64,000 nt of DNA from a virus. A program made the position numbers and the translations under genes. Under the pieces are notes generated by a model. It had not been told where the DNA came from. It made no database searches and saw nothing but the letters and a program-made list of their open reading frames with translations. The stretch spans positions 33,463-97,462 of IMG/VR virus record IMGVR_UViG_3300045902_000324, one strand, 5' to 3'. Below, piece by piece: positions 1 to 40,864 of this stretch (position 1 is its first letter; each line of letters opens with the position of its first letter).

Positions 1-3000
1 CACAAGCTAAGAAGTTTTCAGACCTGCTTGAGAAAAATCCGCAGTACGTCAAGGCACTATCGGCTCAGCTAAAGTCTGGGATTTCCACAGTGCTTGAAAA
101 CATTGCAAACCTGGCAGAGCAACTGCTGAATTACCTGATCGAGAATCCAGATGCAATCTCTGACATGATCGATCGGATCGGGGAACTCGGAAAAGCGCTC
201 GGCACTATCCTTAAGATGGCGGCAGACTTAACGATCGCGTTCGCCAACGCCGCCAACGCAGTGAGCGGAATAGGAGACAATGCAATCGCTAAGGCAGCGC
301 TGTCCATGACAGGGGTTGGACAGGGCGCCGGGATGATAGGCGCACTGACCAGCGGATACCAGACAGTGCGGGGCTGGTTCGGGGGTAACCAACAATCTGC
401 TGCAACACCCGTGGGAGCGATTGACCCGACTCAGACTGACGGCAGCGACAAAGAGGGGTTGAACAAAGCTCCTGTTCAAGCCAGAGCGGGCGCAACCAAA
501 GCGGCGGCGGCACAAGTCACCGCTGTGGACGAGGCATTGGCTGAAAAACTACGAGACATCTCCACCAACATATCTGAGTTCTACAACACGCTAAAACGTA
601 ATGCCGAAGAACTCGCGCTCACCATCAAGCAAACAGATCTGAATAACTCACTGCTGAAAGCTAAGACAGAGCTGACCAAAGCGCTGAGTGGATTTGGGGA
701 GTCATTCTTTGACGATTTCGTGGGTAGGCTGAGCGGGCTGATTGACAAGTTATTCGAGCCTCTTGAGAATTTTCTGACAGCGCAAGAGAAACTACTGTCT
801 GTCAACACACAGCTCCAAGACTCGCTAAACCGTGGCGCTGGACTTGCAGCAGGACTCAATGGCGCGATGCTACCGAGCGGTGCGCCGGGTGCGCCTGGTA
901 GCAGCGGCGGCTTTTACTCACCCCTGCAAGGGCGCTCCGTTCAAGACCTGGTGAACTACCAGGAATCCGCTGGGCAATCCTTCCGAGCAACCAGAAACCG
1001 TAGGTCTGGACGTGGACTACACAACGGGATTGACTTTGATAGCCGAGTTGGAGGCGGACGCGGCGCACAGGTTGTGGCCATGGAGGGCGGGACTGCATCG
1101 ATCCGGGCTATCGGCACCAACCAAGCTGGTGAACAGTCAATGCAGGTAAAAATCCAGTTCACCGACGAAAATGGCAGACCAATCGAGTACCAATACAACC
1201 ATCTCTCTGAGGCTGCGGTTCAACAAGCTCTCGGACAGACTTCAGGCACAACGCAGGTTAGAGCTGGGCAGCTTATCGGTACGGTCGGCGCGACCGACAA
1301 CCTATCGTCAGGCGCACACCTCGATGTCAAAATAAAAGTCGGAGACAACTACGTAGATCCACAGCAGTACATGGCGGCCCGGTCGGGCAGCGGGGGTTAC
1401 GCCGAAACAGCTGATCGCCGCAGAATCAACATTGGCGCGGCTTCCAGGGATGCTAGTCCCGCATCAGTCCCGACTGGTTCCAGTCCGGCACCCGCAGCTA
1501 GACCGACTGATACGCCTGCTCCTGCGGCATCCAGAGGTCGATATGTGCCACGAGGCGGAACGCTAAGTAGAGCGGAGCGTGTGCAGTCTGACCCGGATGG
1601 CGCTGCGGCAATAACGGCGACAGCCAACAGGCTAGGATTACCTGTGGATCAGTTCGCGGCGTTGATGTCGTGGGAGTCAGGCGGATCATTCAACCCAAAC
1701 GTGATGGGTGGCGACAACAACCAGTACCAAGGACTCATCCAGTTCAGCAGGGACAACCAAAACACCTATGGTATCCGGCAGGGGCAAACTATTTCTGAGC
1801 AGATGCCCGCGATCGAACGCTACCTGCAAGATAGAGGGTTCCAGCCGGGACAGCACGACATCCGCCACGCATATTCGGCGGTGCTGGCTGGCAACGCAGA
1901 CGAGCGGTACTGGAACAGACGAGATAGCAACGGCACGTCAGTTCGCAATGCTGCGCCAAAATTTCAGCAGGGCGATCACTACGAACGGGCGCAGCAGTTT
2001 CTACGAGATAGCGGTGTTCCAGTTGGTTCTGTGACGCAGGGCGGTGCTGCTCCAGTCATGACAGGTTCATCTGTCGATACCGGGGCCGCGCAGCTTCAGC
2101 TCAATTCTGCGATGGATCTAAGTACTCAAAACGCAGCACAGATGGCTGGGTCAGTTCGCTCAGAACTAGAGGCACAAAACCTCCTATCTTCTGCTGAGTT
2201 CGACGCGCTCATCTCAGATCAGCAGCGGGCACTTAATCGTGGCGTGGAGTCTGCCCAAGATTCAGCCAGGGGGATTGCGCGATCGCAGGAAGATATTCGG
2301 CTTGAGCTACTAGGGAACTCTCCATACGCCGAGTACGTTCGCCAAACCACACAGCAAAACAGGGCGTTCGAGGATGCCAATCGAGACACGCTCAAAGCTG
2401 TGGAGCGTGGTGAGAACAGCATTGGAGTTCTGACTCGTTCGAGGGAAGTCTTGCAAACGCAGATTCAGCGGGCGCGAGACATGGGAGTAGACTCTGGCAG
2501 TATTGCTCGACTGGAATCACTACTGCCTAACATTGATGAGGCGATCGCCGCCACACAGACAGAGCTGGATCGGATGCGTTCACAGCTTGACGAAGCAGAA
2601 GACTTATTCAAGCAGCGCAACGAAATGTTGGAGCGCGAATACAAAGCGGAAATGGATGCACGCCGCGCGGCCTCCCGGCAACGAACCGAAAATCTTCAAC
2701 TCACAATGCGGGCGGCTGAGCTATCGGATGCTGGCAATGATGTAGGTGCAGGATTCATCTCTCAGCAGATCAGAGAACGCGACCTGAATCAAAACTACGA
2801 AGAGTCCATGCGTCCTCTGCGCGAGGAACTGGAGGTCGTCAACGCTGAGATCGAAAAGATGCGCGAAGCTGGACTAGCTGTGGACAGCACGGCTGTGACG
2901 GTTGCCACAGAGCGGGCAGCGTACTTGGAAGAAATGCTCGACGGACTTGGCACACAGCGGTCGATCGAGATCGAGTTGAACTATCGAGAGATGGACAACA

Positions 3001-4106
3001 ATTTCAGATCGATGCAGGAGCGTCTATCTAGCGAACGAGACGAAGCTGCTGCTAACCTGCTCGAAAGTCAGGGTGACGTATTCGGCGCTGCGTCAATCCG
3101 CGAGCGTTCCGCCACAACTGCGGAAAATCAGCGATTCTCTGAACAGATTGCTCAGATCAACTCGTTCGCTGCGTCAGGACGTTATGCGCCAGAAGACATC
3201 ATGCGTATGCGGACTGAGGCAGAACAGCTTAATTCCATCAACCTCCAATCGATTGACGGGCAGTTCAAGGATCTTGGCGAGACAATCGGGGGTATCGCTC
3301 AGGGATCGCTAAACAATTTCTTCACATCCATCCTGAACGGCAGCAAGTCGGCGGGCGAGGCTTTCAAAGACCTCATCGGCAGTATGCTTTCCCAACTGGC
3401 CCAACTGGCAATCAACTCAGCGTTCGCAGACATTTTCGGCGGGGGGCTGGGCGGCGGCGCGGCTGGCGGTAGCAAAGGTAGCGGCATCTCTGGCATCCTT
3501 GGCGCAGTCATGGGCGGACTGGGCGGCGGTGGCGGCGGCAAAGACTTTGGCGGTACTGTCGCCAGTGTCGCGGCGGGTGGGGGCGGTGGAAAAGGCTGGG
3601 GCAGCTTGATCGGTACTGTCGCATCCGCTTTCCTTGGCGGCATGAAGGACGGCGGTTCTGTGGCAGACACCAGCAGCGCATTTTCCGAGGCACGTAAAAG
3701 CCGAGGCGCAATCGGTGACGCACTGCGGCGGGAAGGGCCGAACTCGATACTGTCAGCGCTCACCCCAGGCGAGGAAGTGCTGGACACAACAGAGGCCGGT
3801 ATCTATCGACGGATGTTCCCACGGGGTATCCAAGACACGCTGGCATCTGGTTTCAACGGTCGCGTAGCCAACTTCAAGCTTGGTGGCACGGTGGGCGGCG
3901 GTGGCAAGATGGCGTTAGCTCCATCGATCGCAGGCGGAGGCGGTGGGGTATCAATCAGCGCCCCAATCAACATGACGCTTGCAGACCGGGGTAAGGGGGA
4001 CGTTGACCCGGCTGAGTTTCAGCGGGCTGTGGACGCTCGCTTCCACCAGCTTGTGCAGCAAGAGTCTCGCCCAAATGGTTCACTCAATAAACTAGGACGC
4101 CGTTAA
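1..4106 (+). CDS. Tail tape measure protein (5'-truncated) with M23 peptidase and lytic transglycosylase-like domains
   Basis: Frame is open from base 3, so the gene starts upstream of the window. Long Ala/Gln-rich helical protein; M23 motifs HNGIDF and GAHLD; transglycosylase-like MSWESGG..GLIQF; TMP-type C-terminus (GMKDGG..EGP..LTPGEEV); directly followed by a gpM-like gene. Confidence 0.9.
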   Translation, partial: QAKKFSDLLEKNPQYVKALSAQLKSGISTVLENIANLAEQLLNYLIENPDAISDMIDRIGELGKALGTILKMAADLTIAFANAANAVSGIGDNAIAKAALSMTGVGQGAGMIGALTSGYQTVRGWFGGNQQSAATPVGAIDPTQTDGSDKEGLNKAPVQARAGATKAAAAQVTAVDEALAEKLRDISTNISEFYNTLKRNAEELALTIKQTDLNNSLLKAKTELTKALSGFGESFFDDFVGRLSGLIDKLFEPLENFLTAQEKLLSVNTQLQDSLNRGAGLAAGLNGAMLPSGAPGAPGSSGGFYSPLQGRSVQDLVNYQESAGQSFRATRNRRSGRGLHNGIDFDSRVGGGRGAQVVAMEGGTASIRAIGTNQAGEQSMQVKIQFTDENGRPIEYQYNHLSEAAVQQALGQTSGTTQVRAGQLIGTVGATDNLSSGAHLDVKIKVGDNYVDPQQYMAARSGSGGYAETADRRRINIGAASRDASPASVPTGSSPAPAARPTDTPAPAASRGRYVPRGGTLSRAERVQSDPDGAAAITATANRLGLPVDQFAALMSWESGGSFNPNVMGGDNNQYQGLIQFSRDNQNTYGIRQGQTISEQMPAIERYLQDRGFQPGQHDIRHAYSAVLAGNADERYWNRRDSNGTSVRNAAPKFQQGDHYERAQQFLRDSGVPVGSVTQGGAAPVMTGSSVDTGAAQLQLNSAMDLSTQNAAQMAGSVRSELEAQNLLSSAEFDALISDQQRALNRGVESAQDSARGIARSQEDIRLELLGNSPYAEYVRQTTQQNRAFEDANRDTLKAVERGENSIGVLTRSREVLQTQIQRARDMGVDSGSIARLESLLPNIDEAIAATQTELDRMRSQLDEAEDLFKQRNEMLEREYKAEMDARRAASRQRTENLQLTMRAAELSDAGNDVGAGFISQQIRERDLNQNYEESMRPLREELEVVNAEIEKMREAGLAVDSTAVTVATERAAYLEEMLDGLGTQRSIEIELNYREMDNNFRSMQERLSSERDEAAANLLESQGDVFGAASIRERSATTAENQRFSEQIAQINSFAASGRYAPEDIMRMRTEAEQLNSINLQSIDGQFKDLGETIGGIAQGSLNNFFTSILNGSKSAGEAFKDLIGSMLSQLAQLAINSAFADIFGGGLGGGAAGGSKGSGISGILGAVMGGLGGGGGGKDFGGTVASVAAGGGGGKGWGSLIGTVASAFLGGMKDGGSVADTSSAFSEARKSRGAIGDALRREGPNSILSALTPGEEVLDTTEAGIYRRMFPRGIQDTLASGFNGRVANFKLGGTVGGGGKMALAPSIAGGGGGVSISAPINMTLADRGKGDVDPAEFQRAVDARFHQLVQQESRPNGSLNKLGRR

Positions 4107-4108
4107 AA

Positions 4109-7100
4109 ATGCCAATCCCTATTTTGGAACTTGACCCGGATTGGGAGATTCAAGAAGTCTCCACAATCGACCAGTACAAGTCTGAGCTAAATGACGGGTA
4201 CAAGCAGACGGCAACCAAAAATCTACCGTCGAGCATTCTGTCATGGGAAGTCCGAAAGACGGGGCTGTCTCAGGCAAATCTAAATCTGCTACTTGGCCAG
4301 CTAGAGACATTCGCAGGTAGCACCCCGTTTTCGTGGCGTCCCACGGAAACCGTCTCCTATCGAGCCTACTTCTGCGACGAGTGGACGGTGATTTCATACG
4401 ACACGGATTGCTGGCAAATATCCGGCAAGTTCGTTCAAGACGTTGGCGGCGAGTGTGTAGAGCTGCTTGATCTGATCGACACCGTGGAGATCACAAACTG
4501 GCTGGCGGCAAGCGATGTCTGGCTAACCACATACACCCGAAACACCCTCCCACTTATCATGAACTCTGTGGCAGGGAAACCCTATCTGCTGGTCAACTCT
4601 TTTCACGATGTGCTGGGTCGCGGCGGATACTTTCCCGGCAGCGCCGGGACGACCGAAGGGCAGTTCCTCATGATCCGAGCCTGTATGGATGTGTTCAACC
4701 AGACAGGCATTGCATCATGGCGGCAGCGGGCGATCGACATGGCTGTCGCGCTAGAACCATCTCTGTACCGAGGGCAGACCGTACCTGCCGATCCAAACAC
4801 GCTTTGGCTCCCACACTGGGTGTTTAACGTCAAGGCTCCGTTCACATCAAAAGGACTAAACACAGCCCCCAACCCGCTCAACTATGGTTACTTCGATCTC
4901 CCTGTAACATTCACGGCAGGCGTAGGTCAGATCTCGGCTGGAGCACCTAACCAAGGCGACAAGCTATCTGATGTCTACAGCGTCTATGCGACCGGAGCAA
5001 AGCTGCTGTGGCAAAACGTATTCGCGCCAGTCGTGTTCGGCACCCAGTACCAAGTCGAATACTGGGTGGTCAACTTCATGCTGGGTGGACAAAACTTCAG
5101 GATCTACCCGTCCTCAGCTTCGAGCAACGGAGCACCACCACTCGCTACGACTGAGCCTGCGGGACGGATCAAGCTGACCACAGCGTTTACCGGGAGTCTC
5201 AAAGTTACCTACGCTGCTTACACTGGGAGCGTTATCGTTGCGAATCAGGTCTTTGACCCGTATCCGTTCTGGCGCACGTTGTTGCCAGGTGAAATCAACT
5301 CTGCGTTTGACGTTCACTGGTGGGCTTACGATGCGTACGTGAAGCTGGCGGCAACTACAGGTCTTCTCAAGTGGACGCAGGCGGCTGAGGCGACTCGTGT
5401 CAACACGATCAACACAGCAGTCGTCCAAAACCCAACAAACTGGTACAAAACAGAGGACAACCCAAATCCATTCGGCTACCCCGGCTCTCAGGCTATTCAG
5501 GTAGACAACCCAAACGGCTACACCGCCAGCAGGGAGACAGCGATCGCGGGGCTACTCAATACCCTAAAGCTGGTCGTTGCGGCGGCACCGGGCGGCACGT
5601 TTCCTAGCATCGAGGTTCAGAACTTCGCGGTTCAAGCGCAGATTAACGCGGCTGTAACGATCGAGGTGGCGATCGCGCAGACTACCACAGCGACGGTTCG
5701 CATTGCGCTGTCGCTATCGCCAAACGCATTTGACTTCAGCCAAACCTATTACGTTAACTGGCACGTCGAGGCGAACACAACGGCGCTTACATCAACATCG
5801 TTCATCCCAGAAAACTTCTTCCGCTGGGATAACAACCTGGTGTGGCATTTGTCGATTGCTGAAACGCCTATCTACGTGTTCTCTGGCGGCGGCGGCAGCG
5901 CAACAACAGGGACGTTCCAGGCTACGAACATCCCATACCTGGGGAAAACACTCAAGCAGGCTGTGGGCGAAATTCAGATGAACGCAGCAGCAGGCTTTGC
6001 TGGTGCAGGGTTAGTGCTCATCGGCAGACAAGTTAGACGCCCTCCACAACTCGCGTTCAGGACAGACAAGACCATCATCCTTCGGCTTACCGACGGCGAG
6101 GGGTACAAGTGGGACAAGGAGATCGCCAATACAGGCGGGTGGGTCTTTGTTCGGTATCCGTGGAGCGCCTTCGAGTTTTCACCTAATAACATCGGGGAGG
6201 AACCGCAGGCACCGGACACACAGAACGACATCCAAAATATCGAGTTCATTGCGGTCGCTGGAGAAGGGTTGACCACAGTGCGGATCTGGTGGGCATCCGA
6301 GGGAACCACCAACCCACCCGCCCAGCTTCCTATTCCGGCTCAAACATACAAAGCCGCCGTGGTGTCTAGAAACCGGAATGCTCATACTTTTTGGGTCGGA
6401 AACTTCCGCCCGGCAAACAGTCCGAGTGATCAACTAAAGTACAACCCCGGCGTCGTTCCTTTTACAGTAAACATCGTCAACGGGGTTGTGGATGCTTGGC
6501 GGGGACTGCCTTACATGGGCTATCAAGACCCAGAACTTTGGTTCAAATGGGGGCTTACGGATCGCTGCCAGCAAGTGCTTGACTGTCTCGATGCCGCTCA
6601 AGATGCATACGCGGCATCCACAGGGGTTGTAGGGGCGTTTGCTCCAGTTTTCAAATGGGGCTACTGGGACGGCGGCGACTACCTGGGCGGACTGAACACG
6701 TTTAGCTGGTCTGGGGCTGACCCGAATACAAGCTGGGGACAATACTTCTATCGTCCGTTAGAAGCGACTGCCAAATACTGGAGCCAGAACCCAGGCGATC
6801 GCAAAGCAGATCAAATCGTCATGCGAGGGCTTGCGATGCTGGACGCGCACTACCTAAAAAACAATACCAGCGTACCGTTTACTGATTTCCCACAGGGTGC
6901 TCCGCCATTCGCTGGCTACAACGATCCTGCTGCGTCAGCTCTGATTGGCCGAGCAGCCGTCTATGCAAATCTAGCTGGCGGCAGTCCGTCTATCACGCTG
7001 CGTGTCATCAACCGGACAATAAAACACCTCCAGAGCCAGTATGTCTCAACAGGTATCATGGCGGGCACCTGGAGCGCCGGGCAGCCAACCTTCGTCAGTG

Positions 7101-7219
7101 GAGGAACAATCTATCGTGAATTCTTTGGGTTTTGGCTGGCCGAGATCTATCTATACTTAGCACTCTTGCTCGAAAAGAAGAACGCCCTAGTGATGCCCCC
7201 TTGTGGCACACGAATCTAG
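4109..7219 (+). CDS. Minor tail protein M/Dit-like domain fused to a GH8-like glycoside hydrolase and possible carbohydrate-binding module
   Basis: First ~110 aa match the gpM pattern (DGYKQ..FSWRP..YFCDEW..ISGKFVQ); GTTEGQFLMIRA resembles the GH8 TSEGQ motif; WVFVRYPWSAFEF is CBM-like. Confidence 0.65.
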   Translation: MPIPILELDPDWEIQEVSTIDQYKSELNDGYKQTATKNLPSSILSWEVRKTGLSQANLNLLLGQLETFAGSTPFSWRPTETVSYRAYFCDEWTVISYDTDCWQISGKFVQDVGGECVELLDLIDTVEITNWLAASDVWLTTYTRNTLPLIMNSVAGKPYLLVNSFHDVLGRGGYFPGSAGTTEGQFLMIRACMDVFNQTGIASWRQRAIDMAVALEPSLYRGQTVPADPNTLWLPHWVFNVKAPFTSKGLNTAPNPLNYGYFDLPVTFTAGVGQISAGAPNQGDKLSDVYSVYATGAKLLWQNVFAPVVFGTQYQVEYWVVNFMLGGQNFRIYPSSASSNGAPPLATTEPAGRIKLTTAFTGSLKVTYAAYTGSVIVANQVFDPYPFWRTLLPGEINSAFDVHWWAYDAYVKLAATTGLLKWTQAAEATRVNTINTAVVQNPTNWYKTEDNPNPFGYPGSQAIQVDNPNGYTASRETAIAGLLNTLKLVVAAAPGGTFPSIEVQNFAVQAQINAAVTIEVAIAQTTTATVRIALSLSPNAFDFSQTYYVNWHVEANTTALTSTSFIPENFFRWDNNLVWHLSIAETPIYVFSGGGGSATTGTFQATNIPYLGKTLKQAVGEIQMNAAAGFAGAGLVLIGRQVRRPPQLAFRTDKTIILRLTDGEGYKWDKEIANTGGWVFVRYPWSAFEFSPNNIGEEPQAPDTQNDIQNIEFIAVAGEGLTTVRIWWASEGTTNPPAQLPIPAQTYKAAVVSRNRNAHTFWVGNFRPANSPSDQLKYNPGVVPFTVNIVNGVVDAWRGLPYMGYQDPELWFKWGLTDRCQQVLDCLDAAQDAYAASTGVVGAFAPVFKWGYWDGGDYLGGLNTFSWSGADPNTSWGQYFYRPLEATAKYWSQNPGDRKADQIVMRGLAMLDAHYLKNNTSVPFTDFPQGAPPFAGYNDPAASALIGRAAVYANLAGGSPSITLRVINRTIKHLQSQYVSTGIMAGTWSAGQPTFVSGGTIYREFFGFWLAEIYLYLALLLEKKNALVMPPCGTRI

Positions 7220-7671
7220 CGAATCGGGCCGTTTCTATCACACACATATCGCACAATAGGGATCACGACATCATCTCCTGCTGCGATAGAACTACCGGGC
7301 ACTGTGTCTCTATCTGCGTTCAATCCGAAGAACGTGAACTGTGCAACACAAACACCATTGCTGCCGTGGTGGTCATAGTCGAGATCTGCTCCAAACGGCA
7401 TGTCGAGTCTGTCCACCCACACCGCCTCAAGTCCGGCTGGCGGCACGTTGCGATCTCGGTCGAGTGGGGGCTGACCCGTATCGGACTGGATCTCCAACAC
7501 CAGCGGTACCATATTTCTTGCTATCGACTGCGCCTCGGCATACAGAGCTTTGTTGCGCTGGTTCAAGTACGAGGGCAGCGCGATCGCAGACAGCACGCCG
7601 ACAATCGCAATTGTCACTAACAGTTCGATTAGCGTGAATCCTGGTTGACCATAATCAGTTCGTTCGTCCAT
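7216..7671 (-). CDS. pilA: Type IV pilin (PilA-like)
   Basis: Class III signal G|FTLIELLVTIAIVGVLSAIALPSYLNQ with Glu5; C-terminal Cys pair; N-terminal helix closely resembles cyanobacterial PilA. Confidence 0.9.
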   Translation of the reverse strand: MDERTDYGQPGFTLIELLVTIAIVGVLSAIALPSYLNQRNKALYAEAQSIARNMVPLVLEIQSDTGQPPLDRDRNVPPAGLEAVWVDRLDMPFGADLDYDHHGSNGVCVAQFTFFGLNADRDTVPGSSIAAGDDVVIPIVRYVCDRNGPIR

Positions 7672-7719
7672 ATCAGAATAAATACTAGCGATCGGACTCC
7701 AAGAGGCGATCGCGGTTAA

Positions 7720-8382
7720 TTAGGTGAAGAACCGAATACCAGCGAGAGTAACTTGCTGAGGGTTCGCAGGAGAGCCAAGGGCGTTAAAGTTTATGGCTCC
7801 GTCCGTGCCGCATCCAAGAACGACGTTAGCATTTGTGCCAAAATTCTCGACCGGATATCGCATCGTACTGGATGGCCTGAACCCAACTGGCAGCGTGCAG
7901 ATTGCGCCAGCGGCAAAAGCTAGTGGTCTACTAGCATAGCCCCGCATCAGGACTTCTCCGCGAATTTTTGTATACTGACACGCCTGAAAGCCAGCAGCGT
8001 TAACCCAGCTATTCTGGAACGAAACCGCTGCCCAAACGGGTGCGCCATTGGTATCTGCAAGCTGCCAAAAGCCGCTGGCGTGAATAAACTCAGCCCACTG
8101 GGTTGATCCCAGTGCCAGAGTGCCGTTCAAACTGATGCCATTCGTGTCTTGGAACGCGATGACATTTGCGCCTGCATTGTGGACGCGAACTCGCTGTCCA
8201 TTGCTGCCACTGGCAATCTGAGGGTTAGAGGTCAGCGTGATGTTCGCTGTCGAGGTGACAGGACACACCTGAAACGCCACGCCTGACGTGATGGCGATCG
8301 TGGTTCCGGCGACCAGCGCTTGACTGGAGTTGAGGATCGGAGTGGCAGTGTCGCCGACAGCAGCTCTAATTGCTCCAAGCAT
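7720..8382 (-). CDS. Putative tail fibre / receptor-binding protein
   Basis: Beta-rich; C-terminal WVN..QYTKIRGEVLMRG..TLPVGFRP pattern typical of phage fibre tips; lies in tail operon. Confidence 0.65.
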   Translation of the reverse strand: MLGAIRAAVGDTATPILNSSQALVAGTTIAITSGVAFQVCPVTSTANITLTSNPQIASGSNGQRVRVHNAGANVIAFQDTNGISLNGTLALGSTQWAEFIHASGFWQLADTNGAPVWAAVSFQNSWVNAAGFQACQYTKIRGEVLMRGYASRPLAFAAGAICTLPVGFRPSSTMRYPVENFGTNANVVLGCGTDGAINFNALGSPANPQQVTLAGIRFFT

Positions 8383-8483
8383 TAATCCTTCCTTTTGCCA
8401 ATCGCAATAATTTCAGCAACGCGCTCGATGATTGGCGTTATTTTCTTGAGCGCTTTACCCAGCCGCTTAAACAGTTTCTTCAA
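8382..8483 (-). CDS. 33-aa cationic amphipathic peptide MKKLFKRLGKALKKITPIIERVAEIIAIGKRKD (not in ORF track)
   Basis: TTG start 2 nt after the upstream stop, GGAGG 9 nt upstream, TAA stop overlaps the next ATG (TAATG). Confidence 0.75.
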   Translation of the reverse strand: MKKLFKRLGKALKKITPIIERVAEIIAIGKRKD

Positions 8484-8485
8484 GG

Positions 8486-9091
8486 CTACAGCCCTCCCCA
8501 ATAGAATTGCAAGGTTGTATTGGACGCAGCAGACGCCCGAATCCTAATCGTCTGCACAAAGAAGTCCCTGAAGTCGAATGCCAGAATCACCTTACCCGTT
8601 GTCGCATTTAGGGTGGTCGGATCAACACTCGCGCCCAGCGTGTCACCAGACAGCCGCAAGATTGAGTCTGACGGGGGAGCAGTGAAATGAGCGCCAGTGT
8701 TCAGATGGATCTGCATATCTGCACTGGCATTGCAGCGAGTTGATATCTCAAAACCGTTCAGGTTGGCTGCACCAATGTTATTCACCTGAAGCCGAAAGCG
8801 GGTCAGGGTGGGGATTTCGATAAAAGTGCCAGTGGATGCAGTGAGGGCGGTGCCGCCGACGACAGCAAGGTTCGTCGGGTTGCCGAACGATGCGCCTACG
8901 GCTGCTCCTGTGTCCACCTTGAAACGATCGCCTACTAGAGCCGTGGGAAGTAATGCCTGAATAGCAGCGGCGATCGCCGTCAGCGCCGGATCTCTGCGAA
9001 TCAAGTCATCCCCAGCCCCTCCGTTATCTTCCACCCGCATGGTGCGCGGGGTGTTCGTCCCGTCAATGTAAGTGCGTCCTACAATTGTCAT
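8486..9091 (-). CDS. Hypothetical, probably virion structural protein
   Basis: 201-aa Ala/Thr/Gly-rich beta-type ORF coupled within the tail operon. Confidence 0.6.
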   Translation of the reverse strand: MTIVGRTYIDGTNTPRTMRVEDNGGAGDDLIRRDPALTAIAAAIQALLPTALVGDRFKVDTGAAVGASFGNPTNLAVVGGTALTASTGTFIEIPTLTRFRLQVNNIGAANLNGFEISTRCNASADMQIHLNTGAHFTAPPSDSILRLSGDTLGASVDPTTLNATTGKVILAFDFRDFFVQTIRIRASAASNTTLQFYWGGL

Positions 9092-9093
9092 AG

Positions 9094-9888
9094 CTATCCG
9101 TTAGGGTCTACTTGACAATGCCCAATGTGCTCAGACAGTGGCGCAGGCATACCCACAGCGAAGCCCTGCAACAAAAGGTCGCACTGTGGGTATGGACGCA
9201 CCATCTCGTTCAACTCAGATATCAACGAGTCTGATTCGACCCACTCGGCAATACACAACAATCTAAGATCGTGACAAATGCTGAACAACCCTCGGATAAC
9301 AGCCCGATGTTTTGAGCTGTCCAGAACTCTAATCACAAACCCGCCGTTTATCTTTAGTCCGTCAATCTCTAGATTCACGATTGAGTCTAGATTTGAGTAA
9401 CCTATCCCAATATCGTCAAGCAAAATGGGAGACAATAGCGCCATACGCATCACGCTATCCCCAATTACTCGATAGTCGAGAGGCTGAGACTCAAGTACTT
9501 CTAGAATCAAACACGGCTCGATTAAACCGGACAGTACATCACCAACCCGGTCAGGTAAATCTTTATCGTGCAGTGATGCCGCCGTTAGATTAACTGTAAT
9601 TCTAATGTGCAGGTATCCACACGCTCTGAGCATCCGTAAATCATCGACAACTTGCCGCAACACCCAGGCATCAAGTGCGATCGCCAGCGTGTCAATTTCA
9701 AGAACGTCTGGAACGAACTGAGCCGCTTCAATGACACTCCCATCAGACCGGGACATCCGAATCAGAGCCTCAAACATTTTTGCAGGCTGCCCCAGTTCTG
9801 ACGGACGTTTTACTGGCTGATAGTAGACTCGCAAATCGCCACCGCCAGCCCGCAGTGCGTCCCACACTTTTTGTTGTATCTGGTTCAT
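9094..9888 (-). CDS. Stand-alone EAL-domain c-di-GMP phosphodiesterase
   Basis: YYQP, FEALIR, ITVNL, LEVLE, LDDIGIGYS, LKIN, AEWVE and LQGF motifs; ATG at 9888 overlaps the tipJ stop (TGATG). Confidence 0.9.
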   Translation of the reverse strand: MNQIQQKVWDALRAGGGDLRVYYQPVKRPSELGQPAKMFEALIRMSRSDGSVIEAAQFVPDVLEIDTLAIALDAWVLRQVVDDLRMLRACGYLHIRITVNLTAASLHDKDLPDRVGDVLSGLIEPCLILEVLESQPLDYRVIGDSVMRMALLSPILLDDIGIGYSNLDSIVNLEIDGLKINGGFVIRVLDSSKHRAVIRGLFSICHDLRLLCIAEWVESDSLISELNEMVRPYPQCDLLLQGFAVGMPAPLSEHIGHCQVDPNG

Positions 9889-12587
9889 CAAACGAAAACT
9901 AGATTCTGGGATCTGGACATATCCAAACCACCTGTGATTGCTGCAATCACAGGCTGGCTGTTTACCCACAGCGAGGTGCGATTGTTAACATCAAGCACGG
10001 CGGCGCGACAGTAGTATGTTCCCCTGGTCAGATTCTCGAAACGACACTCATTGGTGCCTGCGGGCACTAGTCGAGTGTCCTGCCATACAATCCCATCGCG
10101 GGAATATTCAACATACACGCCGCGCAGGACGGACGCACTGGCTCCAACAACCCATCGGATGATCAACGTGTACTGCGGAGAAACAGACGGGTCAATCGCC
10201 TGTACAGCGATCGCCTGCCCCAAAACAGATTGAAGTGGTTCTACAACAGGTGGAATCGTAAACCGAGTTGGGGTCGGATCAATGGCTATATCATTCTCAA
10301 TGGCAAGCCATTTGTTCGCATCGTACTGGATGCAGTTGATGTCGATTTTTGTCGGGTCTTGCTGCGGGCGGACTGAGAGCACTCTAAACAGTTGAGCTTT
10401 CACCGAAGGCGACTGAATTACCCAATTCGATTCAGCCTGTGGGAGCTGCGAGAACGGCGGCCACACCTGTACCACATTTGACGTGACATTAACGCCGATC
10501 GTCCGGGTTTCGAGCAATCCGTTTGGCAACATGACAGAAAGCGTCATGCTCGTATTTACGGTGACTGTCGCGTCTAATCGAATCGTGTTAGAGTTAATAA
10601 CTTGTCCGATCAACCCGCCATAGCGAACGTTGGCAAAGTTTGAGTCTGCGACTTGAATCACTTCACCGGGTCGGCAGTATGCAGCGTAGCTTCGAGCGGT
10701 GAAACTTAGCGATCGCGTTTCATTCTTCGAGCTGTACAGAATCCATCTACTATTTCTAATCGCTAGAGATCTTGAGGTGCACCCAAAAAAAGCAACCTCA
10801 ACATCGCGGACACCATAGCGGTTGATCGCCTCAATATCCTCGACTACTTCCACAGCCCGTTGGTAATAGTCATTCGGGTCATTCCAGACACCTCTAACAA
10901 TCGTATGCCGAGTGCGGACAGCCGTTGAGGAATAAACGAAATCCCCTACCACATCAGCCTGTGTGAACTGATGATGACTCACCGGAGTTGGACGATCTTG
11001 CCAGAACTTTACGGTACCCTCCGCCCAGTATGCCCGCATGTGGCACGCCGAGCAAAAGGCGTTGATTACATCCCACGCTTTTTCAGCGGAGGCGATTTGA
11101 GTGTTGCAGGAATATCGGCGCTCAGATCCGCCGAATCCCGTAGGTACATACCCATTGTTATAAACAGACGCATCATACAGATCCCACTTGTCGATTAAAG
11201 AGTCATCCAAGTATCGACCCAGCCCATAGCGCCGATTTGTCAAAATGTCGAACAGTTGCCAAACCGGGTCACTGGTGGCTGTTGCAGGTGTATAGAAATT
11301 GCCGTCCCACACGCCTGAGAAGTTCAGCCCGCGATCGCCTGCGACAATAGCATTCGTGGGAATCCGAACACGCCGTCCACCAACTCGATACTGACGAGAC
11401 GGGATCGAGCTGAACTGGTCTGGGCTAAACTGAAGCCCGATATACGCTGTATACGGATAATTCAACTTATTGGTCGTGACCTCGGTATAGCTAATCCACC
11501 GAACCACCTGAATTGTGCGAGACGAGTTGGAATCACTTGAAATACGCCTCAGTCGGATCTGAAAATTGCCGACCGTACCAGACTGGTTGTTTACCTTGAA
11601 AGCGTGCTCAAACTCAGTCAGTCCACTAAACTTAGCTTTCAGATTTTTTCTGTAGCGAACTGTCCAGGGCGCGATGCCCTGCTTTATTTCGATCTGGTAC
11701 TCTACGTTCGTCCCCTTTACATCTCCATCCTCCTCATACTTCACGAGTTGGATGCCCAGGCGAACACGTATGACATCACACTCCGTGTTCACAAATGCGC
11801 GAGTCGCTGGGCCGGACGCATTCTTGATTTCAATATTTACAAAAGTCTCATTGCTGATCTCAACTCCTTCGTCTGAGATAATCTGCTGCGTTGCGTTCCC
11901 GCGCCGGAACTTATACCGGAAGCCCACAAAGTTGAGTGAGTTATTTGGGTTCTGGACAGGCGTCTCAGATAGATAAATCCCTTTACGAGCACCAATCAGC
12001 CCTTCAATCGGGCCCTCTGAAACAGCCTCCAAGACGTACGCTCTTGAGGTCGATCGCCCGTCGTCATCGGCCTCCTTTGGGCTGGACGCATTTTTTCCGC
12101 CGCCTCCGTTGTGAACACGCAGCCCATGTTCGCCAACCAGGAAGCTGTGGTAGTTCTCAACTCGCAGATTCCATACGGGTGCCACGCCACGCAGTCTAGA
12201 TCGCTCCAGAGGTCTAACCAGGTTTTCTCTATCAAATAGCGCAGCGTCTCGGCCAAGCTTGCCTATCTCCTGAAACGCCCCGCCATCGGTCAGAAACCAG
12301 TGGATCGGAGTTGCTGCTATGGTGCCGCCCCAGTAATCGTACTCCCACACCTCGTGGTTTCCGTGGAACTCTAGCGTTGCTTTGGCTACATGCAAATCGC
12401 CTTTTGAGTCAAACGCTGATACCCATGTACCCTCCGCCACATCCTGGATTTCTACAGTGCCATCTAGCGTGTGGATTAGCGTGCCGGACGGGAAACACCC
12501 CCCGCCTGATCCAAAAACAAGCCCGTCCACATGGCTTGACGGGATGGATGCAACAGCCTTAGTGCGGCGACGCCTAACCTTCGTCAT
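9888..12587 (-). CDS. tipJ: Central tail tip protein J with N-terminal Hint domain
   Basis: AVSEGPIEGL, YPYTAY, WDGNF, DPVWQLFDILTNRRYGLG, GCTSRSLA, RPGEVIQVAD motifs; Hint CFPSGT...VHN at 12497-12108. Start placed at MTKV (uncertain). Confidence 0.9.
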   Translation of the reverse strand: MTKVRRRRTKAVASIPSSHVDGLVFGSGGGCFPSGTLIHTLDGTVEIQDVAEGTWVSAFDSKGDLHVAKATLEFHGNHEVWEYDYWGGTIAATPIHWFLTDGGAFQEIGKLGRDAALFDRENLVRPLERSRLRGVAPVWNLRVENYHSFLVGEHGLRVHNGGGGKNASSPKEADDDGRSTSRAYVLEAVSEGPIEGLIGARKGIYLSETPVQNPNNSLNFVGFRYKFRRGNATQQIISDEGVEISNETFVNIEIKNASGPATRAFVNTECDVIRVRLGIQLVKYEEDGDVKGTNVEYQIEIKQGIAPWTVRYRKNLKAKFSGLTEFEHAFKVNNQSGTVGNFQIRLRRISSDSNSSRTIQVVRWISYTEVTTNKLNYPYTAYIGLQFSPDQFSSIPSRQYRVGGRRVRIPTNAIVAGDRGLNFSGVWDGNFYTPATATSDPVWQLFDILTNRRYGLGRYLDDSLIDKWDLYDASVYNNGYVPTGFGGSERRYSCNTQIASAEKAWDVINAFCSACHMRAYWAEGTVKFWQDRPTPVSHHQFTQADVVGDFVYSSTAVRTRHTIVRGVWNDPNDYYQRAVEVVEDIEAINRYGVRDVEVAFFGCTSRSLAIRNSRWILYSSKNETRSLSFTARSYAAYCRPGEVIQVADSNFANVRYGGLIGQVINSNTIRLDATVTVNTSMTLSVMLPNGLLETRTIGVNVTSNVVQVWPPFSQLPQAESNWVIQSPSVKAQLFRVLSVRPQQDPTKIDINCIQYDANKWLAIENDIAIDPTPTRFTIPPVVEPLQSVLGQAIAVQAIDPSVSPQYTLIIRWVVGASASVLRGVYVEYSRDGIVWQDTRLVPAGTNECRFENLTRGTYYCRAAVLDVNNRTSLWVNSQPVIAAITGGLDMSRSQNLVFV

Positions 12588-13167
12588 CGGAATCATCCTC
12601 AATCATGTACGACCGGATCGAGGCACTGAGCACCTGACTACCAACGAGCAGTTCTCCATACACGACTGGCAGACGACCCCCTTGAGTCGTCGTATTGACC
12701 CCGCCATTAAAAATTAACGATGGTTTGTTTTTTGCATCATTCGGGTCAGGTGCTTTGGGCTGGTTAAACAGTTCCATGATGCCGGACAGTGCCAGACTAC
12801 CCCCGATCAGTGCGACGGATGCCGCCGACAACCCCAGGAAGCCCACGCCAGTCGCACCCAAAACAACCAGACCGATTCCAAGCAAAATTTTGCCGAATGC
12901 CCCACCTCCACCCAATGGCGTTGGCGCTATCGTAATTGTCTGTTTTCCAGTCGGCATCGAGACGTGCTGTTGCTCAATAGCCCAATCCCCGACAGTAATC
13001 TGGAAACCTACCCCACGCTCATGCGCGACGACCATGTAGTTGCGAAATGTCGGGAACGCTGACTCAAGGGCCCTGATCGCTTCTTTCACCGATCCAACGT
13101 TTAATCGGATCTCAGAAATGAACCGATCTGCCAACTCATCTTTCAACACAACAGTCACCATCGGCAT
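12574..13167 (-). CDS. Tail assembly protein I (ubiquitin-like domain, Gly motif, hydrophobic segment)
   Basis: SVKEAIRAL, PLGGGGAFGKILLG, QGGRLPVVYGELLVGSQV; lambda L-K-I-J order. Confidence 0.9.
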   Translation of the reverse strand: MPMVTVVLKDELADRFISEIRLNVGSVKEAIRALESAFPTFRNYMVVAHERGVGFQITVGDWAIEQQHVSMPTGKQTITIAPTPLGGGGAFGKILLGIGLVVLGATGVGFLGLSAASVALIGGSLALSGIMELFNQPKAPDPNDAKNKPSLIFNGGVNTTTQGGRLPVVYGELLVGSQVLSASIRSYMIEDDSDDEG

Positions 13168-13994
13168 TACAAAAACGCCTCATGTCGAAAGGTAAACCGT
13201 GCAACCTCCTGCCAGTGCCCGCCGTACACTCTGGTTTCTGACAGGCGATCGCCGTTCAGCAAGTGCAGCAGCACCGGACGATCACCGACTTCCACAATCA
13301 CGCCGCAGTGGTGCGGAATCTCTGACTCGATAGCCATGATCGGTACGTCATACAGCCGCAACGGTTCAGTCGGATCGATTTCCACAAATCCGATCTGCGG
13401 CATATACTCTGTGAACGTGGCCCAGGCACCGCCACGTAGCTGGATAGCTGGCTCCGGTGCCCTATCAAAATCAGGCAGTTCAATATTTAAGAATCCACGG
13501 TAGAAATTCCGCAACAGCGTGTAGCAGTCCGCCCTCGCCCACACCCAGCGCCAGCCCAGGTAGAACTCTAAATCTGTTGGCTGCCCAATTCGGGGTTGCA
13601 GAGGAAACGGATTTAGCCCAGCAGGATCGTAAAAATCCCAAACCCTGTCCAACCTGTGGAACATGGCAATCGGATTCATCAACGCTCGTCCAGTGTTGAT
13701 GTCCATGTAAGACAATTCAGCAGGCTGCGTTTCAAGCACATGGCTGTGGTAAACCGATTGAACAGACATGCCGTTGTCAGACAATGCATCGTACGCCTTT
13801 CGGTCAAACGCAAAATAGTTGGCTGTGTCGCCAGCAACGTTTTGGAGCGGCGCGACCGTAAGCATTCCAGACGGGTCAACGCAGACAGCACCACAGATTT
13901 CCTCATCTGGGTTTTCGTCAGCGAGTGCTTCAATCTGCAATCGGATTTCGGATGAGTAGGGCAACATCTGTGATGGGCGAAACACCCTAGACAT
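13167..13994 (-). CDS. Tail assembly protein K (JAB/MPN + NlpC/P60)
   Basis: EEICG, YHSH..ELSYMD JAB motif; ADCYTL..HCGV NlpC motif. Confidence 0.9.
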   Translation of the reverse strand: MSRVFRPSQMLPYSSEIRLQIEALADENPDEEICGAVCVDPSGMLTVAPLQNVAGDTANYFAFDRKAYDALSDNGMSVQSVYHSHVLETQPAELSYMDINTGRALMNPIAMFHRLDRVWDFYDPAGLNPFPLQPRIGQPTDLEFYLGWRWVWARADCYTLLRNFYRGFLNIELPDFDRAPEPAIQLRGGAWATFTEYMPQIGFVEIDPTEPLRLYDVPIMAIESEIPHHCGVIVEVGDRPVLLHLLNGDRLSETRVYGGHWQEVARFTFRHEAFL

Positions 13995-14007
13995 TACCCA
14001 GCGGGCG

Positions 14008-14673
14008 CTAAAAACGTCTCAGTCCTGGGAAGCCGCCGAAAGGCAAAACTGAGTTTTTACCGAATCGTCTGGTGCAGGCTGTCACAGACTTTGAACAGTC
14101 ATCCAGCGACGGGTCTAAGGTTCGCTTATTGTCCAAAGTGAAATACGTGGTGCCGACATAACTGCACTCAGCGGAGCGATACACCCACGGGCACTTTGTA
14201 CCGCATGGTCGTCCCGGCACGGACTCGTCTACAAAGTCAATTGGTGCAGACAGCTCAAACTCCAGCATCTTTCCAGGGATCTCCTGAATACGCTGGCTGA
14301 TTACATACAGTCCGTCCAGCCTCAATGCTGCGGGATCTGCGGTTGTCTCTGAGTCGAGATATCGTTTCAGCGTCCGATAGACAGCTAGTCTGGCACCCTC
14401 AAGCCCGTCATAGTAATAGACCAGGTTGGAAATACCTTTCGTCGTGTCATCCACACGCAGCTTTGGTCTGGCTAACGACCCTTCAGATGACATCTCTTCA
14501 CCGGACAGTTCGCAATTTACTGGCGTGTATTGGACGCCGCCCATAACCACACCAACGCCAGCCGTAAAGTACGCCGTTTCTGCCAAGTTACGACGGTTGA
14601 AGTTTGTCATGCGAAACAGCGTCAGTACGGCATCATGTTCAAGCTGCTGAAGCGATGGGAAAAAAACTGTCAT
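14008..14673 (-). CDS. Minor tail protein L
   Basis: CPWVYRSAECSY..DDCSKSVTACTRRFG..LPFGGFPG Fe-S-type C-terminus. Confidence 0.92.
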   Translation of the reverse strand: MTVFFPSLQQLEHDAVLTLFRMTNFNRRNLAETAYFTAGVGVVMGGVQYTPVNCELSGEEMSSEGSLARPKLRVDDTTKGISNLVYYYDGLEGARLAVYRTLKRYLDSETTADPAALRLDGLYVISQRIQEIPGKMLEFELSAPIDFVDESVPGRPCGTKCPWVYRSAECSYVGTTYFTLDNKRTLDPSLDDCSKSVTACTRRFGKNSVLPFGGFPGLRRF

Positions 14674-14987
14674 GGTGCGGGGGACCTTTCAAATTCTGCG
14701 GAGAACCCCCACAGCCCGACGGTTCCGTACCACTGCCAGCGCCATTGCGTGCAGGTATATTGAGCGTTCTGAAAAACAAACCGTCTTCCGTCACGCTCGA
14801 TTAGGAACGCCTGCACTTCCGTATATCGCGTCGTGTTGATTTGCACGAACCAGGTACGATCCGTCCGGTTCACGTCATACAAAACCGGGCGCTGCTGGAT
14901 TCCCTGAACTCGCGCCGATGGCGATCGCACTTTGGTGCGATAGCTGGACTCTCGTGCTATCGATATTGGGAATGTCGGGGGTGGCAT
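14670..14987 (-). CDS. Second minor tail protein M-like gene
   Basis: ~105 aa with EVQAFL..GRRFVF..YTCTQW..FSAEFE pattern, directly upstream of gpL. Confidence 0.7.
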   Translation of the reverse strand: MPPPTFPISIARESSYRTKVRSPSARVQGIQQRPVLYDVNRTDRTWFVQINTTRYTEVQAFLIERDGRRFVFQNAQYTCTQWRWQWYGTVGLWGFSAEFERSPAP

Positions 14988-14993
14988 TGCGTC

Positions 14994-15018
14994 GGGTATG
15001 GTCTTTTGAACCATACCC
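14994..15018. promoter_or_regulatory. Perfect 9-bp inverted repeat GGGTATGGT-N7-ACCATACCC between divergent tail and lysis genes
   Basis: Seen directly; sits in the 39-bp gap between ATG 14987 (-) and ATG 15027 (+). Confidence 0.5.
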
Positions 15019-15026
15019 ACACACAC

Positions 15027-15758
15027 ATGGAACCCTTCAACCTTCAGTCGGCAAAGCCATTAGCGTTTCTCTCACCGGAACAAATCACATGGGTTCAGCA
15101 CCAACTAAAGCGAGGTGCATACCTGGAAAAAGTGGACGGCATCGTGGGGCCTGCCACACTGAACGCTCTAAAGTCGTTCAAATCTGATTTCTACCTTGAG
15201 CATCCAGAGTTGATCGGCAACACAACTCTCAAGGCTCTGTCTGAACTCGACCCACCGGATAAAGTCACTGAGCAAGCAACCGAGATTATTCTGACGGTGA
15301 ACGCAGCCGCCGGATCTAGAACAGGTCGATCCGCCACACTGCCGGGAGCTGGGCTGGTCTACGCAAACCAGTGGATCAGACCCGGCATCCCACTTACGTG
15401 GGGCGAAATGACTAAAGATATGACACGTCTCCCAACCGACAAAACAGTAGTCGCCAACATTGTCAACTTTGCCGCCGCATTTGGACAGATTCGAGCCAAG
15501 TTTGGTTCTCCTATTGCAATCACGTCTGGGTATCGCCCAAAGGCAGTAAACGATGCGATCGGCGGAGCATCCAAATCTCAGCACGTACCTGGCAAGGCTG
15601 CGGACATCCGCCCAGCTAACGGCGAATTCGACAAGCTCTTAGCAGTTCTCAAATCAATTGATGCGGTCGGAGGCATTGGGCTAGGCGAGAAAGCTGGCGG
15701 GTTTCTCCACGCAGATACCAGGGAGAAGCGAGTCATTTTTCCATACGGTAGCCGCTGA
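15027..15758 (+). CDS. Endolysin: peptidoglycan-binding domain + peptidase M15A
   Basis: VDGIVGPATLNALKSF PG-binding motif; ITSGYR..SQHVPGKAADI..HADTR. Confidence 0.88.
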   Translation: MEPFNLQSAKPLAFLSPEQITWVQHQLKRGAYLEKVDGIVGPATLNALKSFKSDFYLEHPELIGNTTLKALSELDPPDKVTEQATEIILTVNAAAGSRTGRSATLPGAGLVYANQWIRPGIPLTWGEMTKDMTRLPTDKTVVANIVNFAAAFGQIRAKFGSPIAITSGYRPKAVNDAIGGASKSQHVPGKAADIRPANGEFDKLLAVLKSIDAVGGIGLGEKAGGFLHADTREKRVIFPYGSR

Positions 15759-15973
15759 TGCACAAGACAATCACCGTCGAATGGATTTTTCACGGACTGG
15801 CGATCGCCATGCTGCTGCGCGGGTTCTTCTCTGGAGCCGACATGATGCAGGAGGCTACCACAGCAGGGGTCATCATCGCGCTAGGTCGAGGATTGCCAAC
15901 CGAAAAGGTTGACCATGTACTCGACAAGTACGACCGTCCAATCTTTCCTAGCGACCCACCGGATGACGCCTGA
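15758..15973 (+). CDS. Putative holin / small membrane protein
   Basis: 71 aa with hydrophobic segments, overlaps the endolysin stop (TGATG). Confidence 0.5.
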   Translation: MHKTITVEWIFHGLAIAMLLRGFFSGADMMQEATTAGVIIALGRGLPTEKVDHVLDKYDRPIFPSDPPDDA

Positions 15974-17776: not shown

Positions 17777-18184
17777 TCAAGCTATAGGCGAGTCTTGAGC
17801 CTTAATGTATTCCTTAAGTTTCTCAATTGGCGCTCCACCTGTTGAAGCCACATAGTAAGAGCCTGACCAGAAAGACTGTTTTGTGTACCACTTTGAGAAC
17901 TCTTCAGAAAACTCTTTTTTGACCATGCGGCTAGTTGCCGCCTTGAGAGAACCTGCAACAGCGGCAATCGACTGTTTGGGATGAAAATCGACTAGCAGGT
18001 GAATATGATCCGCTTCTCCAGAACATTCCAACAATTCACAGTCCATCGTTCTACAGACTTGCCAGCACATTTCTCTAATCCGTTCCAGCATTGCAGCAGT
18101 AATTGCTTTGCGCCTGTAATGGGTAACGAATACGAAGTGTAACCGCACACTAAAAACACTGTGTGAACCCTTCCTAGCCTTCAT
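17777..18184 (-). CDS. tnpA: Y1 HUH transposase
   Basis: LHFVFVTHYRR, DHIHLL, FWSGSYYVASTG, YIKAQ. Confidence 0.95.
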   Translation of the reverse strand: MKARKGSHSVFSVRLHFVFVTHYRRKAITAAMLERIREMCWQVCRTMDCELLECSGEADHIHLLVDFHPKQSIAAVAGSLKAATSRMVKKEFSEEFSKWYTKQSFWSGSYYVASTGGAPIEKLKEYIKAQDSPIA

Positions 18185-18218
18185 TGCAAATACCCCACCT
18201 GCAAGATATAATGCTCTT

Positions 18219-19472
18219 ATGATGACACGCAGAGTTACCTTTAGGCTGTATCCATCTGAAGCGCAAACGGCAAAGCTGTTTGAGGCTCGGAGGCTTCACG
18301 CCTATCTCTATAACGCTTGCGTTGAGCATCGTAAAACGAGCTATCAGAAGTTTGGCAAGTCCATCAGCTATTTTGATCAGCAAGCCGCGCTTGTACCGTT
18401 TAAGGCTGATTGGCAGGAGTATAGAGCGCTCAATCATGGCTCATTGCAAGCCACAGTGAAGCGGGTTGATTTTGCCTTCCAGCGCTTTTTCAAAGGACTG
18501 GGTGGGTATCCCAAGTTTCAAGCGATTCGCCGTTACTCTGGCTGGACATACCCTGATGCCCGTCAAGGCTTTAAGGTGCATTCAGACGGCAAGAATGGAT
18601 ACTTGGAATTGCGGGATCTAGGGCTAAAGCTCCAGATGCGAGGGCAAGCGCGAACTTGGGGCGCTCCCACGACTTGCACAATTGTCTATCGTAACGGGCT
18701 ATGGTTTGCCAGCATCACGGTAAATTGCGAGGTTGCGCGCAAAACCGGCAATGGCGCGGTAGGAATCGATTTTGGCGTACTGACGGCTGCGGCATTGTCA
18801 AATGGAACCAAGATCGAAAACCCGCGCTTCATTGCCAAAACGCAAGCCAAGGTTCGCAAAGCAAGCAAGGCAAAGCGTCGCAAGCGCTCACCCAATCTCA
18901 AGCAAAAAGTTAAAGCGTCAAAACGATGGAGGAAAGCGTCTAAGCGGGTATCAAAGCTGCAACGCAAAGTTGCAAATCAGCGGCAGAACTGGGTACATCA
19001 AGTCTCTACACAGATAGTCAGCAGTAATAGCTTGGTAGCGACTGAAAAGTTAAACCTCAAAGGGATGACTCGCAAGGCGAGGAAAGGAAAACGCAAGGCG
19101 CAAAAGTCAGGGCTAAACCGCTCCATTCTGGATGTTGGGATGGGGATGTTGCGCGCTGCGATTGCGTATAAGTTGGCGGAAGCAGGGGGTTTCTTTGTGG
19201 AGGTGCCGACGCTCACGGTTAAGCCTTCTCAGACTTGCCCCAGTTGTGGTCATCAGGAGAAAAAACCACTTGAGCAGCGAGTGCATCATTGCCAGCAATG
19301 CGGTTATGTGGAGGATAGAGATGTGGCGGCTGCTCAAGTCATGCTCAATTGGGCACGGGGTAAGGAACTTGCCTCGTCAAACGTGGATGGGTCTGGCTCT
19401 ACTGACTGCGGAAGCATGAAGCAACTAGCCCAAACGAAGCGTCAGAAACTCCTAGCTCAGCGAAGCGGCTAG
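18219..19472 (+). CDS. tnpB: TnpB RNA-guided nuclease
   Basis: FRLYP, GIDFG, TEKLN, SQTCPSCG..CQQCG..DRDVAAA. Confidence 0.95.
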   Translation: MMTRRVTFRLYPSEAQTAKLFEARRLHAYLYNACVEHRKTSYQKFGKSISYFDQQAALVPFKADWQEYRALNHGSLQATVKRVDFAFQRFFKGLGGYPKFQAIRRYSGWTYPDARQGFKVHSDGKNGYLELRDLGLKLQMRGQARTWGAPTTCTIVYRNGLWFASITVNCEVARKTGNGAVGIDFGVLTAAALSNGTKIENPRFIAKTQAKVRKASKAKRRKRSPNLKQKVKASKRWRKASKRVSKLQRKVANQRQNWVHQVSTQIVSSNSLVATEKLNLKGMTRKARKGKRKAQKSGLNRSILDVGMGMLRAAIAYKLAEAGGFFVEVPTLTVKPSQTCPSCGHQEKKPLEQRVHHCQQCGYVEDRDVAAAQVMLNWARGKELASSNVDGSGSTDCGSMKQLAQTKRQKLLAQRSG

Positions 19473-40566: not shown

Positions 40567-40864
40567 CGACCTTCTCCCTCAACTGATAAAGGGCTACTAA
40601 TCCTGCTTGATCTTGTGACTTGGAGTATTCCGCCTCCAACAGTCTGAACTTATCCTCAAAGACTCTGTGGGCGGCGGACGCTTGCTCCTTTCGTGCGATC
40701 GCCGTGGTTGCTGCGCCTGCTGCCGCCCCTGCCGCTGCCCCAGTGCCGACCAGTACGAACCGTAGCGTGCTCTGAAACTGTGACTGCAATCCTAACTGGA
40801 GGCAGGCTACGAAGCTTAGGAACCCAACCACACCGCCCGCCGCCATTCCCACAATCGTCTTCAT
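40559..40864 (-). CDS. Small two-TM protein
   Basis: Gly/Ala-rich hydrophobic helices; ATGA coupling. Confidence 0.7.
   Translation of the reverse strand: MKTIVGMAAGGVVGFLSFVACLQLGLQSQFQSTLRFVLVGTGAAAGAAAGAATTAIARKEQASAAHRVFEDKFRLLEAEYSKSQDQAGLVALYQLREKVDD

Follow-up and report, generated by a model that had tools for sequence, protein, structure and literature searches.

A 33-codon open reading frame (ORF) was found in the distal tail operon of a phage, where an insertion of about 105 bp separates two tail genes that adjoin each other in related loci. The ORF is probably a real, translated gene. The reading that we favour, at a little less than an even chance, is that it encodes an accessory peptide that would bind to membrane surfaces and would be made late, together with the tail proteins. 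The anatomy of the ORF makes translation likely, and a peptide with such properties would rarely arise by chance. The window, i.e., the whole stretch of DNA that was analysed, is 64,000 nucleotides long and corresponds to positions 33463-97462 of a viral record of 97,462 bp that is estimated to be about 84% complete. The coordinates of the relevant features are collected in Table 1.

Table 1. Features of the ORF, its flanking genes and the lysis genes (window positions).
Feature	Position	Strand	Remarks
33-codon ORF	8382..8483	-	TTG start 8483-8481, stop TAA 8384-8382 (included in the interval); +8 peptide, predicted single alpha-helix
GGAGG Shine-Dalgarno sequence	8493..8497	-	9 nt 5' of the TTG of the ORF
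Alternative in-frame TTG	8499..8501	-	39-aa form; without a Shine-Dalgarno sequence; overlaps the upstream gene
AGGAAGGA, second Shine-Dalgarno-like element	8386..8393	-	lies in the final codons of the ORF; used by the 220-aa gene that follows
Lineage-specific insertion, about 105 bp	8387..8492	-	absent from L002, L003 and L004
201-aa conserved gene, function unknown	8486..9091	-	directly after J in relatives
220-aa gene	7720..8382	-	minor-tail- or fibre-like in its C-terminal half; the TAATG overlap couples it to the ORF
Endolysin	15027..15758	+	peptidoglycan-binding domain and Peptidase_M15_3
Candidate holin, 71-aa hydrophobic ORF	15758..15973	+	coupled to the endolysin

Reading of the minus strand confirmed the frame of 33 residues that an earlier note on this DNA had proposed. 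Its start codon is TTG rather than ATG and would be read as formyl-methionine. The TTG follows the TAG stop (8488-8486) of the 201-aa gene after 2 nt, and the last A of the TAA stop is shared with the ATG of the 220-aa gene, so that both the close start and the TAATG overlap described earlier are borne out. Such stop/start coupling at both ends counts for a gene. The GGAGG that had been proposed as the ribosome-binding site is present as well, within the conserved Trp-Gly-Gly codons that end the 201-aa gene. Its correct spacing from the TTG also counts for a gene, in a phage in which a strong Shine-Dalgarno (SD) sequence precedes just nine of 72 first starts (background: 2.6%). Since strong SDs are this uncommon, their presence at both junctions of the ORF is notable, even though the first one was inherited. 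The longer, 39-aa form has already been called in a public protein collection (P0002), and the gene is therefore not as entirely hidden as the earlier note had supposed.

The ORF occupies the only sizeable gap of a tightly packed operon, of which the other junctions either overlap or leave gaps of at most 48 nt. The GC content at the third codon position (GC3) is 0.53, like that of the neighbouring genes, and at the second position (GC2) it is 0.29. This contrast is the pattern expected of a coding frame, unlike that of uniformly AT-rich filler. The three sequencing runs found to contain this DNA are DNA runs, probably from the source sample, and revealed no variants; no RNA run is listed.

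Several other explanations of the open stretch were tried and rejected. The ORF lies in the -1 frame of the 201-aa gene and this frame is open upstream, but a -1 frameshift that fuses the peptide to the 201-aa protein is contradicted by the lack of an X XXY YYZ slippery site before the stop, and by the homologues in relatives, which terminate at the same Trp-Gly-Gly. A structured RNA was dismissed on the basis of an unremarkable fold (z-score of +1.1) and the lack of a match in Rfam. Finally, neither a promoter nor a terminator of its own was found on the strand of the ORF.

The minus-strand operon runs in the order 118-aa gene, L, K, I, J, EAL protein, 201-aa gene, ORF, 220-aa gene and prepilin-like gene. 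It forms one of the two convergent arms of the tail module (window 3-7219 on the plus strand versus 7216-15026 on the minus strand), an arrangement that is the same in L002 (see below). The plus arm encodes the tape measure protein, which contains Peptidase_M23 as a domain, and a protein of 1036 aa whose N-terminus is gpM-like; the minus arm encodes L, K, I and J. The N-terminus of J contains a Hint-like domain (window 12100-12500, minus strand), which is kept in the J proteins of L003 and L004 and is followed there by the same Gly-rich stretch.

Three related loci were compared with this operon: L002, a 78.5-kb viral contig, and L003 and L004, both metagenome contigs. The 201-aa protein has homologues with 44-56% identity. 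In all three loci, J is directly followed by such a homologue, which in turn is directly followed by a homologue of the 220-aa protein. The two genes meet in a TAATG overlap in L002 and across a 2-nt gap in L003 and L004. The small ORF is absent from all three loci. A frame that is not conserved in relatives is among the findings that the earlier note had named as refuting its proposal, and it applies here in the sense that the relatives have no such ORF at all. Because the flanking tail genes abut in these loci, the ORF lies within a lineage-specific insertion of about 105 bp. The GC content of the insertion is 0.43, versus 0.55 in the flanking genes, and its boundaries are ambiguous within a GGAGG/GGAAGG microhomology. 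In the relatives, the 220-aa gene uses as its ribosome-binding site the GGAGG within the terminal Trp-Gly-Gly codons. In the present phage, this ancestral GGAGG faces the TTG of the ORF, and it is AGGAAGGA that faces the ATG of the 220-aa gene.

In L002 (IMGVR_UViG_3300041964_000068), the homologues of J, the 201-aa protein, the 220-aa protein and the endolysin are each frameshifted (L002 3392-7298; L105 1314-2058), which may reflect either assembly errors or a decaying element. Two further genes of the operon are lineage-specific, i.e., the EAL-domain gene after J (window 9094-9969), which is absent from all three loci, and the prepilin-like gene that closes the operon (window 7216-7671), of which L002 has no counterpart ahead of the convergent gene. 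The corresponding sites in the relatives are at 5985-6001 and 7298-7497 in L002, 2529-2542 in L003 and 5056-5069 in L004. Together with the ORF, the operon has taken up three private insertions.

An insertion of this kind may be nothing but a scar: a short segment, either foreign or slipped in, landed between the two genes, and an open frame in it, with the old SD ahead of it and a new one at its end, is merely tolerated. A variant of this explanation holds that the frame is kept solely to preserve the flow of ribosomes to the 220-aa gene, while the peptide itself has no role. The explanation is unlikely in our judgement, yet plausible. The ORF starts with TTG, the SD ahead of it is ancestral and did not evolve for it, microhomology is found at the ends of the insertion and the antisense frames across the insert are open too. 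Moreover, a 33-codon frame would be open by accident in about 20% of cases, which also speaks against the reading that we favour. On the other hand, the contrast between GC3 and GC2 looks coding, and the 220-aa gene has an SD of its own, which means that the frame would not have to stay open on account of coupling alone. The remaining arguments on this explanation come from the peptide.

The peptide contains eight Lys, three Arg, two Glu and one Asp, in agreement with the net charge of +8 that had been given for it. For residues 1-21, the hydrophobic moment (muH) is 0.79 at 100 degrees, and only one of 10,000 shuffles was as high (p ~1e-4). The last third of the peptide has a muH of 0.26-0.33 and is hydrophobic, not amphipathic. 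A single-sequence AlphaFold2 model predicts one continuous helix from residue 2 to 32 (pLDDT 88), and a helix predicted with such confidence counts for a gene. In its N-terminal two thirds, the predicted helix has a Lys face and a Leu/Phe/Ile face; the C-terminal part consists of an Ile/Ala-rich stretch followed by Lys-Arg-Lys-Asp. The proline of the proposed central hinge is present (Thr16-Pro17), but in the model the helix runs unbroken through this site with a pLDDT of 93. No signal peptide, lipobox or segment of transmembrane length was found in the peptide. A hydrophobic leader is lacking in the 33-aa and the 39-aa form alike, and the ORF opens directly with the Lys-rich helix.

When all ORFs of 30-60 aa in the 97-kb genome (682) are ranked by their best 18-residue moment, this one comes second. 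Both in this genome and across 23 related loci, the spurious ORFs with a high moment are alternative frames rich in Arg, Cys and Ser, unlike the peptide, which is rich in Lys, Leu, Ile and Ala. A moment far above that of the shuffles and a composition unlike that of spurious ORFs both count for a gene. Two cautions apply to this argument. High-moment ORFs arise by chance, and 40 of 108,013 18-residue windows in six frames reach a muH of 0.75, which is also in keeping with a scar. In addition, the ORF was first picked for its striking appearance, and this look-elsewhere effect weighs against the favoured reading. Nevertheless, the joint chance of a frame that is open and fills the gap, a moment within the top 0.3% and a clean Lys/Leu/Ile/Ala composition is small, which counts against a scar.

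Searches for homologues gave no further guidance. Using phmmer against 1.84 billion representatives, the ORF matched itself alone, as it did in a word-index protein search with a 40-aa query. No match was obtained by tblastn in 50,697 phage records (E ≤ 10) or with a back-translated DNA pattern in viral contigs, and the ESM Atlas gave no usable match for the peptide. Pfam and PHROGs returned noise at E ≤ 10; the only Pfam family was RPW8, with an E of 0.02-0.06, far below its cut-off. Paralogues were found neither in the genome nor in the related loci that were retrieved. By these searches the peptide is a complete orphan, private to one genome as a scar would be, and in the absence of homologues, evolution offers no sign that the peptide is under selection.

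The earlier note called the peptide cecropin-like. It shares with cecropins (PF00272) and LL-37 a length of about 33-37 aa, a charge between +6 and +8, and the order of a basic amphipathic N-terminal helix, then a Pro or Gly, then a more hydrophobic C-terminal part. It differs from them in other respects: no match to the Pfam cecropin family was found even at E ≤ 10, the model has no hinge, and the peptide is encoded by a phage rather than by an animal. It also has no signal peptide or propeptide, so that it would be made in the cytoplasm.

A closer comparison is with gp28 of Escherichia phage phiKT, a disruptin of which the function was proven by genetic and biochemical means (bioRxiv 10.1101/515445). 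gp28 (NC_019520, 37102-37272) has 56 aa, a charge of +7 and a best 18-residue moment (muH18) of 0.68; by the same measure the ORF peptide has 33 aa, +8 and 0.78, and each contains eight Lys and three Arg. Both are small, cationic peptides without a signal, predicted to form an amphipathic helix. Both phages are without recognisable spanins, and both peptides are sequence orphans, as gp28 has no family beyond one near-identical phage. However, BLASTP found no alignment between the two at E ≤ 100. The gp28 gene lies inside a lysis cassette, between endolysin gp27 and holin gp29, and overlaps the endolysin gene (NC_019520), whereas the ORF lies in a distal tail operon. Furthermore, gp28 has a proven function, whereas any function of the ORF is a prediction.

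The lysis genes of the present phage appear to be an endolysin and a 71-aa hydrophobic ORF, which had no match in Pfam or PHROGs at E ≤ 10 and may be a holin of an undescribed type. The pair diverges from the start of the operon and is likely the lysis cassette. An endolysin homologue is also present in the virus behind L002. A crude lipobox scan, run on all six frames of the 97,462-bp record, returned three weak hits, all of them unconvincing and none close to the lysis genes. The only half-credible one is a 101-aa ORF (window 40559-40864, minus strand) with a hydrophobic N-terminus that ends in Val-Ala-Cys; it belongs to an operon for membrane proteins, at a great distance from the lysis genes. 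With no credible lipoprotein in the scan, neither an o-spanin nor a u-spanin is recognisable. The earlier statement that the window is without visible spanins thus stands, and extends to the whole record at its completeness of about 84%.

The host has to be considered here. An IS200/IS605-type pair (window 17777-19472) consists of a TnpA-like gene on the minus strand and a 417-aa TnpB on the plus strand. The best matches of TnpB are cyanobacterial, with up to 73-74% identity, and copies with 60-74% identity occur in many cyanobacterial genomes. These matches are a useful host clue and point to a cyanobacterium, with a Gram-negative-type envelope, as the probable host. The DNA of the window occurs in hot-spring and microbial-mat metagenomes. 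The phage is accordingly described as a lambda-like siphovirus of a cyanobacterium from a hot-spring or microbial-mat habitat.

The original proposal of a disruptin-type lysis factor can now be weighed. In this reading, the cationic helix weakens the outer membrane and so replaces spanins: once holin and endolysin have done their work it would arrive at the outer membrane, or it would cross membranes alone, and it would displace divalent cations from the lipopolysaccharide. What holds of it is the gp28/LL-37-like chemistry, with size, charge and moment that match or exceed those of gp28, and the lack of a recognisable spanin gene in a record without a credible lipobox ORF. A Gram-negative-type host and a lysis cassette that appears to hold only the endolysin and the candidate holin are also in its favour, and co-expression with the late tail genes would fit the timing of lysis. 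Its context and its relatives do not support it. The ORF is located outside the cassette among tail-fibre genes, with 6.5 kb between it and the pair of M15 endolysin and candidate holin, which are encoded on the other strand; it has no homologue or similarity to gp28, and the related loci do without it. The lack of recognisable spanins is weak evidence in a cyanobacterial phage, and the record is about 84% complete, so that the missing 16% or so may encode a spanin. We consider a disruptin-type factor improbable. In its more specific form, a spanin substitute for a cyanobacterial phage that is encoded away from the cassette and supplied by the late tail operon, the proposal is slightly less probable still.

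The position of the ORF between two distal-tail genes, with translational coupling to both, raises the question whether the peptide belongs to the tail, either as a small virion component or assembly helper bound to the 201-aa or the 220-aa protein, or as a peptide that is set free at the cell surface and aids penetration. A heptad-like hydrophobic stripe runs along the whole length of the predicted helix, and the only similarities in the PDB are to designed coiled coils, both of which are compatible with such a role. Yet the relatives build the same tail proteins without the ORF, which suggests that the peptide is dispensable for the tail, and no family match to any virion protein was found. 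A complex prediction of the peptide with its two neighbours scored 0.00 and gave no verdict; the model of the 201-aa neighbour itself has a pLDDT of 58. A role in the tail is very improbable, and nothing computed here supports the membrane-penetrating virion peptide that the earlier note offered as its second option.

Taken together, these comparisons lead back to the accessory peptide. Two conserved distal-tail genes are separated by the insertion of about 105 bp, which carries the 33-codon ORF. The ORF has appropriated the ancestral GGAGG, which in the relatives serves the 220-aa gene, and it ends in the TAATG overlap, with a fresh AGGAAGGA ahead of the 220-aa ATG. This much is established, as is the lack of a promoter or terminator of its own. 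Ribosomes leaving the 201-aa gene would translate the ORF and then the 220-aa gene, so that the peptide would be made late, together with the tail proteins. Its composition suggests that it binds membranes. As it has no signal peptide and no segment of transmembrane length, the first surface within its reach would be the cytoplasmic face of anionic membranes (plasma or thylakoid membrane), on which it may lie flat and which it may perturb or mark. A similar design is seen in the SpoVM-type peptides of Bacillus, which are cytoplasmic amphipathic helices of about 26-33 aa that contain an internal Pro and have a basic C-terminus. SpoVM acts in the sporulation of Firmicutes and is not a phage protein, and no homology to the ORF is expected; by this likeness the peptide would presumably attach to the membrane surface from the cytoplasmic side.

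The likeness of the ORF to the other insertions in the operon is the reason to read it as a moron-like late accessory. As with the EAL and pilin genes, the peptide would be a dispensable addition and not a core component of lysis or of the virion. The J-distal morons of lambdoid phages (e.g., lom) resemble the ORF in being lineage-specific insertions downstream of J that are absent from syntenic relatives, and the ORF has a lower GC content than its flanking genes. The ORF differs from classical morons in two ways: these have their own promoter and terminator, whereas the ORF lacks both and its coupling to the late operon is complete, and it is far smaller than the known morons.

If the improbable role in lysis were true, cyanobacteria would have their first example of a lysis peptide that acts by disrupting the outer membrane, and disruptins would not need to be linked to a lysis cassette. 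If the peptide is made and is membrane-active, a cyanophage example would be added to the very small set of phage-encoded peptides that resemble antimicrobial peptides, and a short natural peptide from hot springs would become available for testing. The locus also indicates how a minigene can be inserted where two tail genes are coupled, with re-use of the ribosome-binding site already present there.
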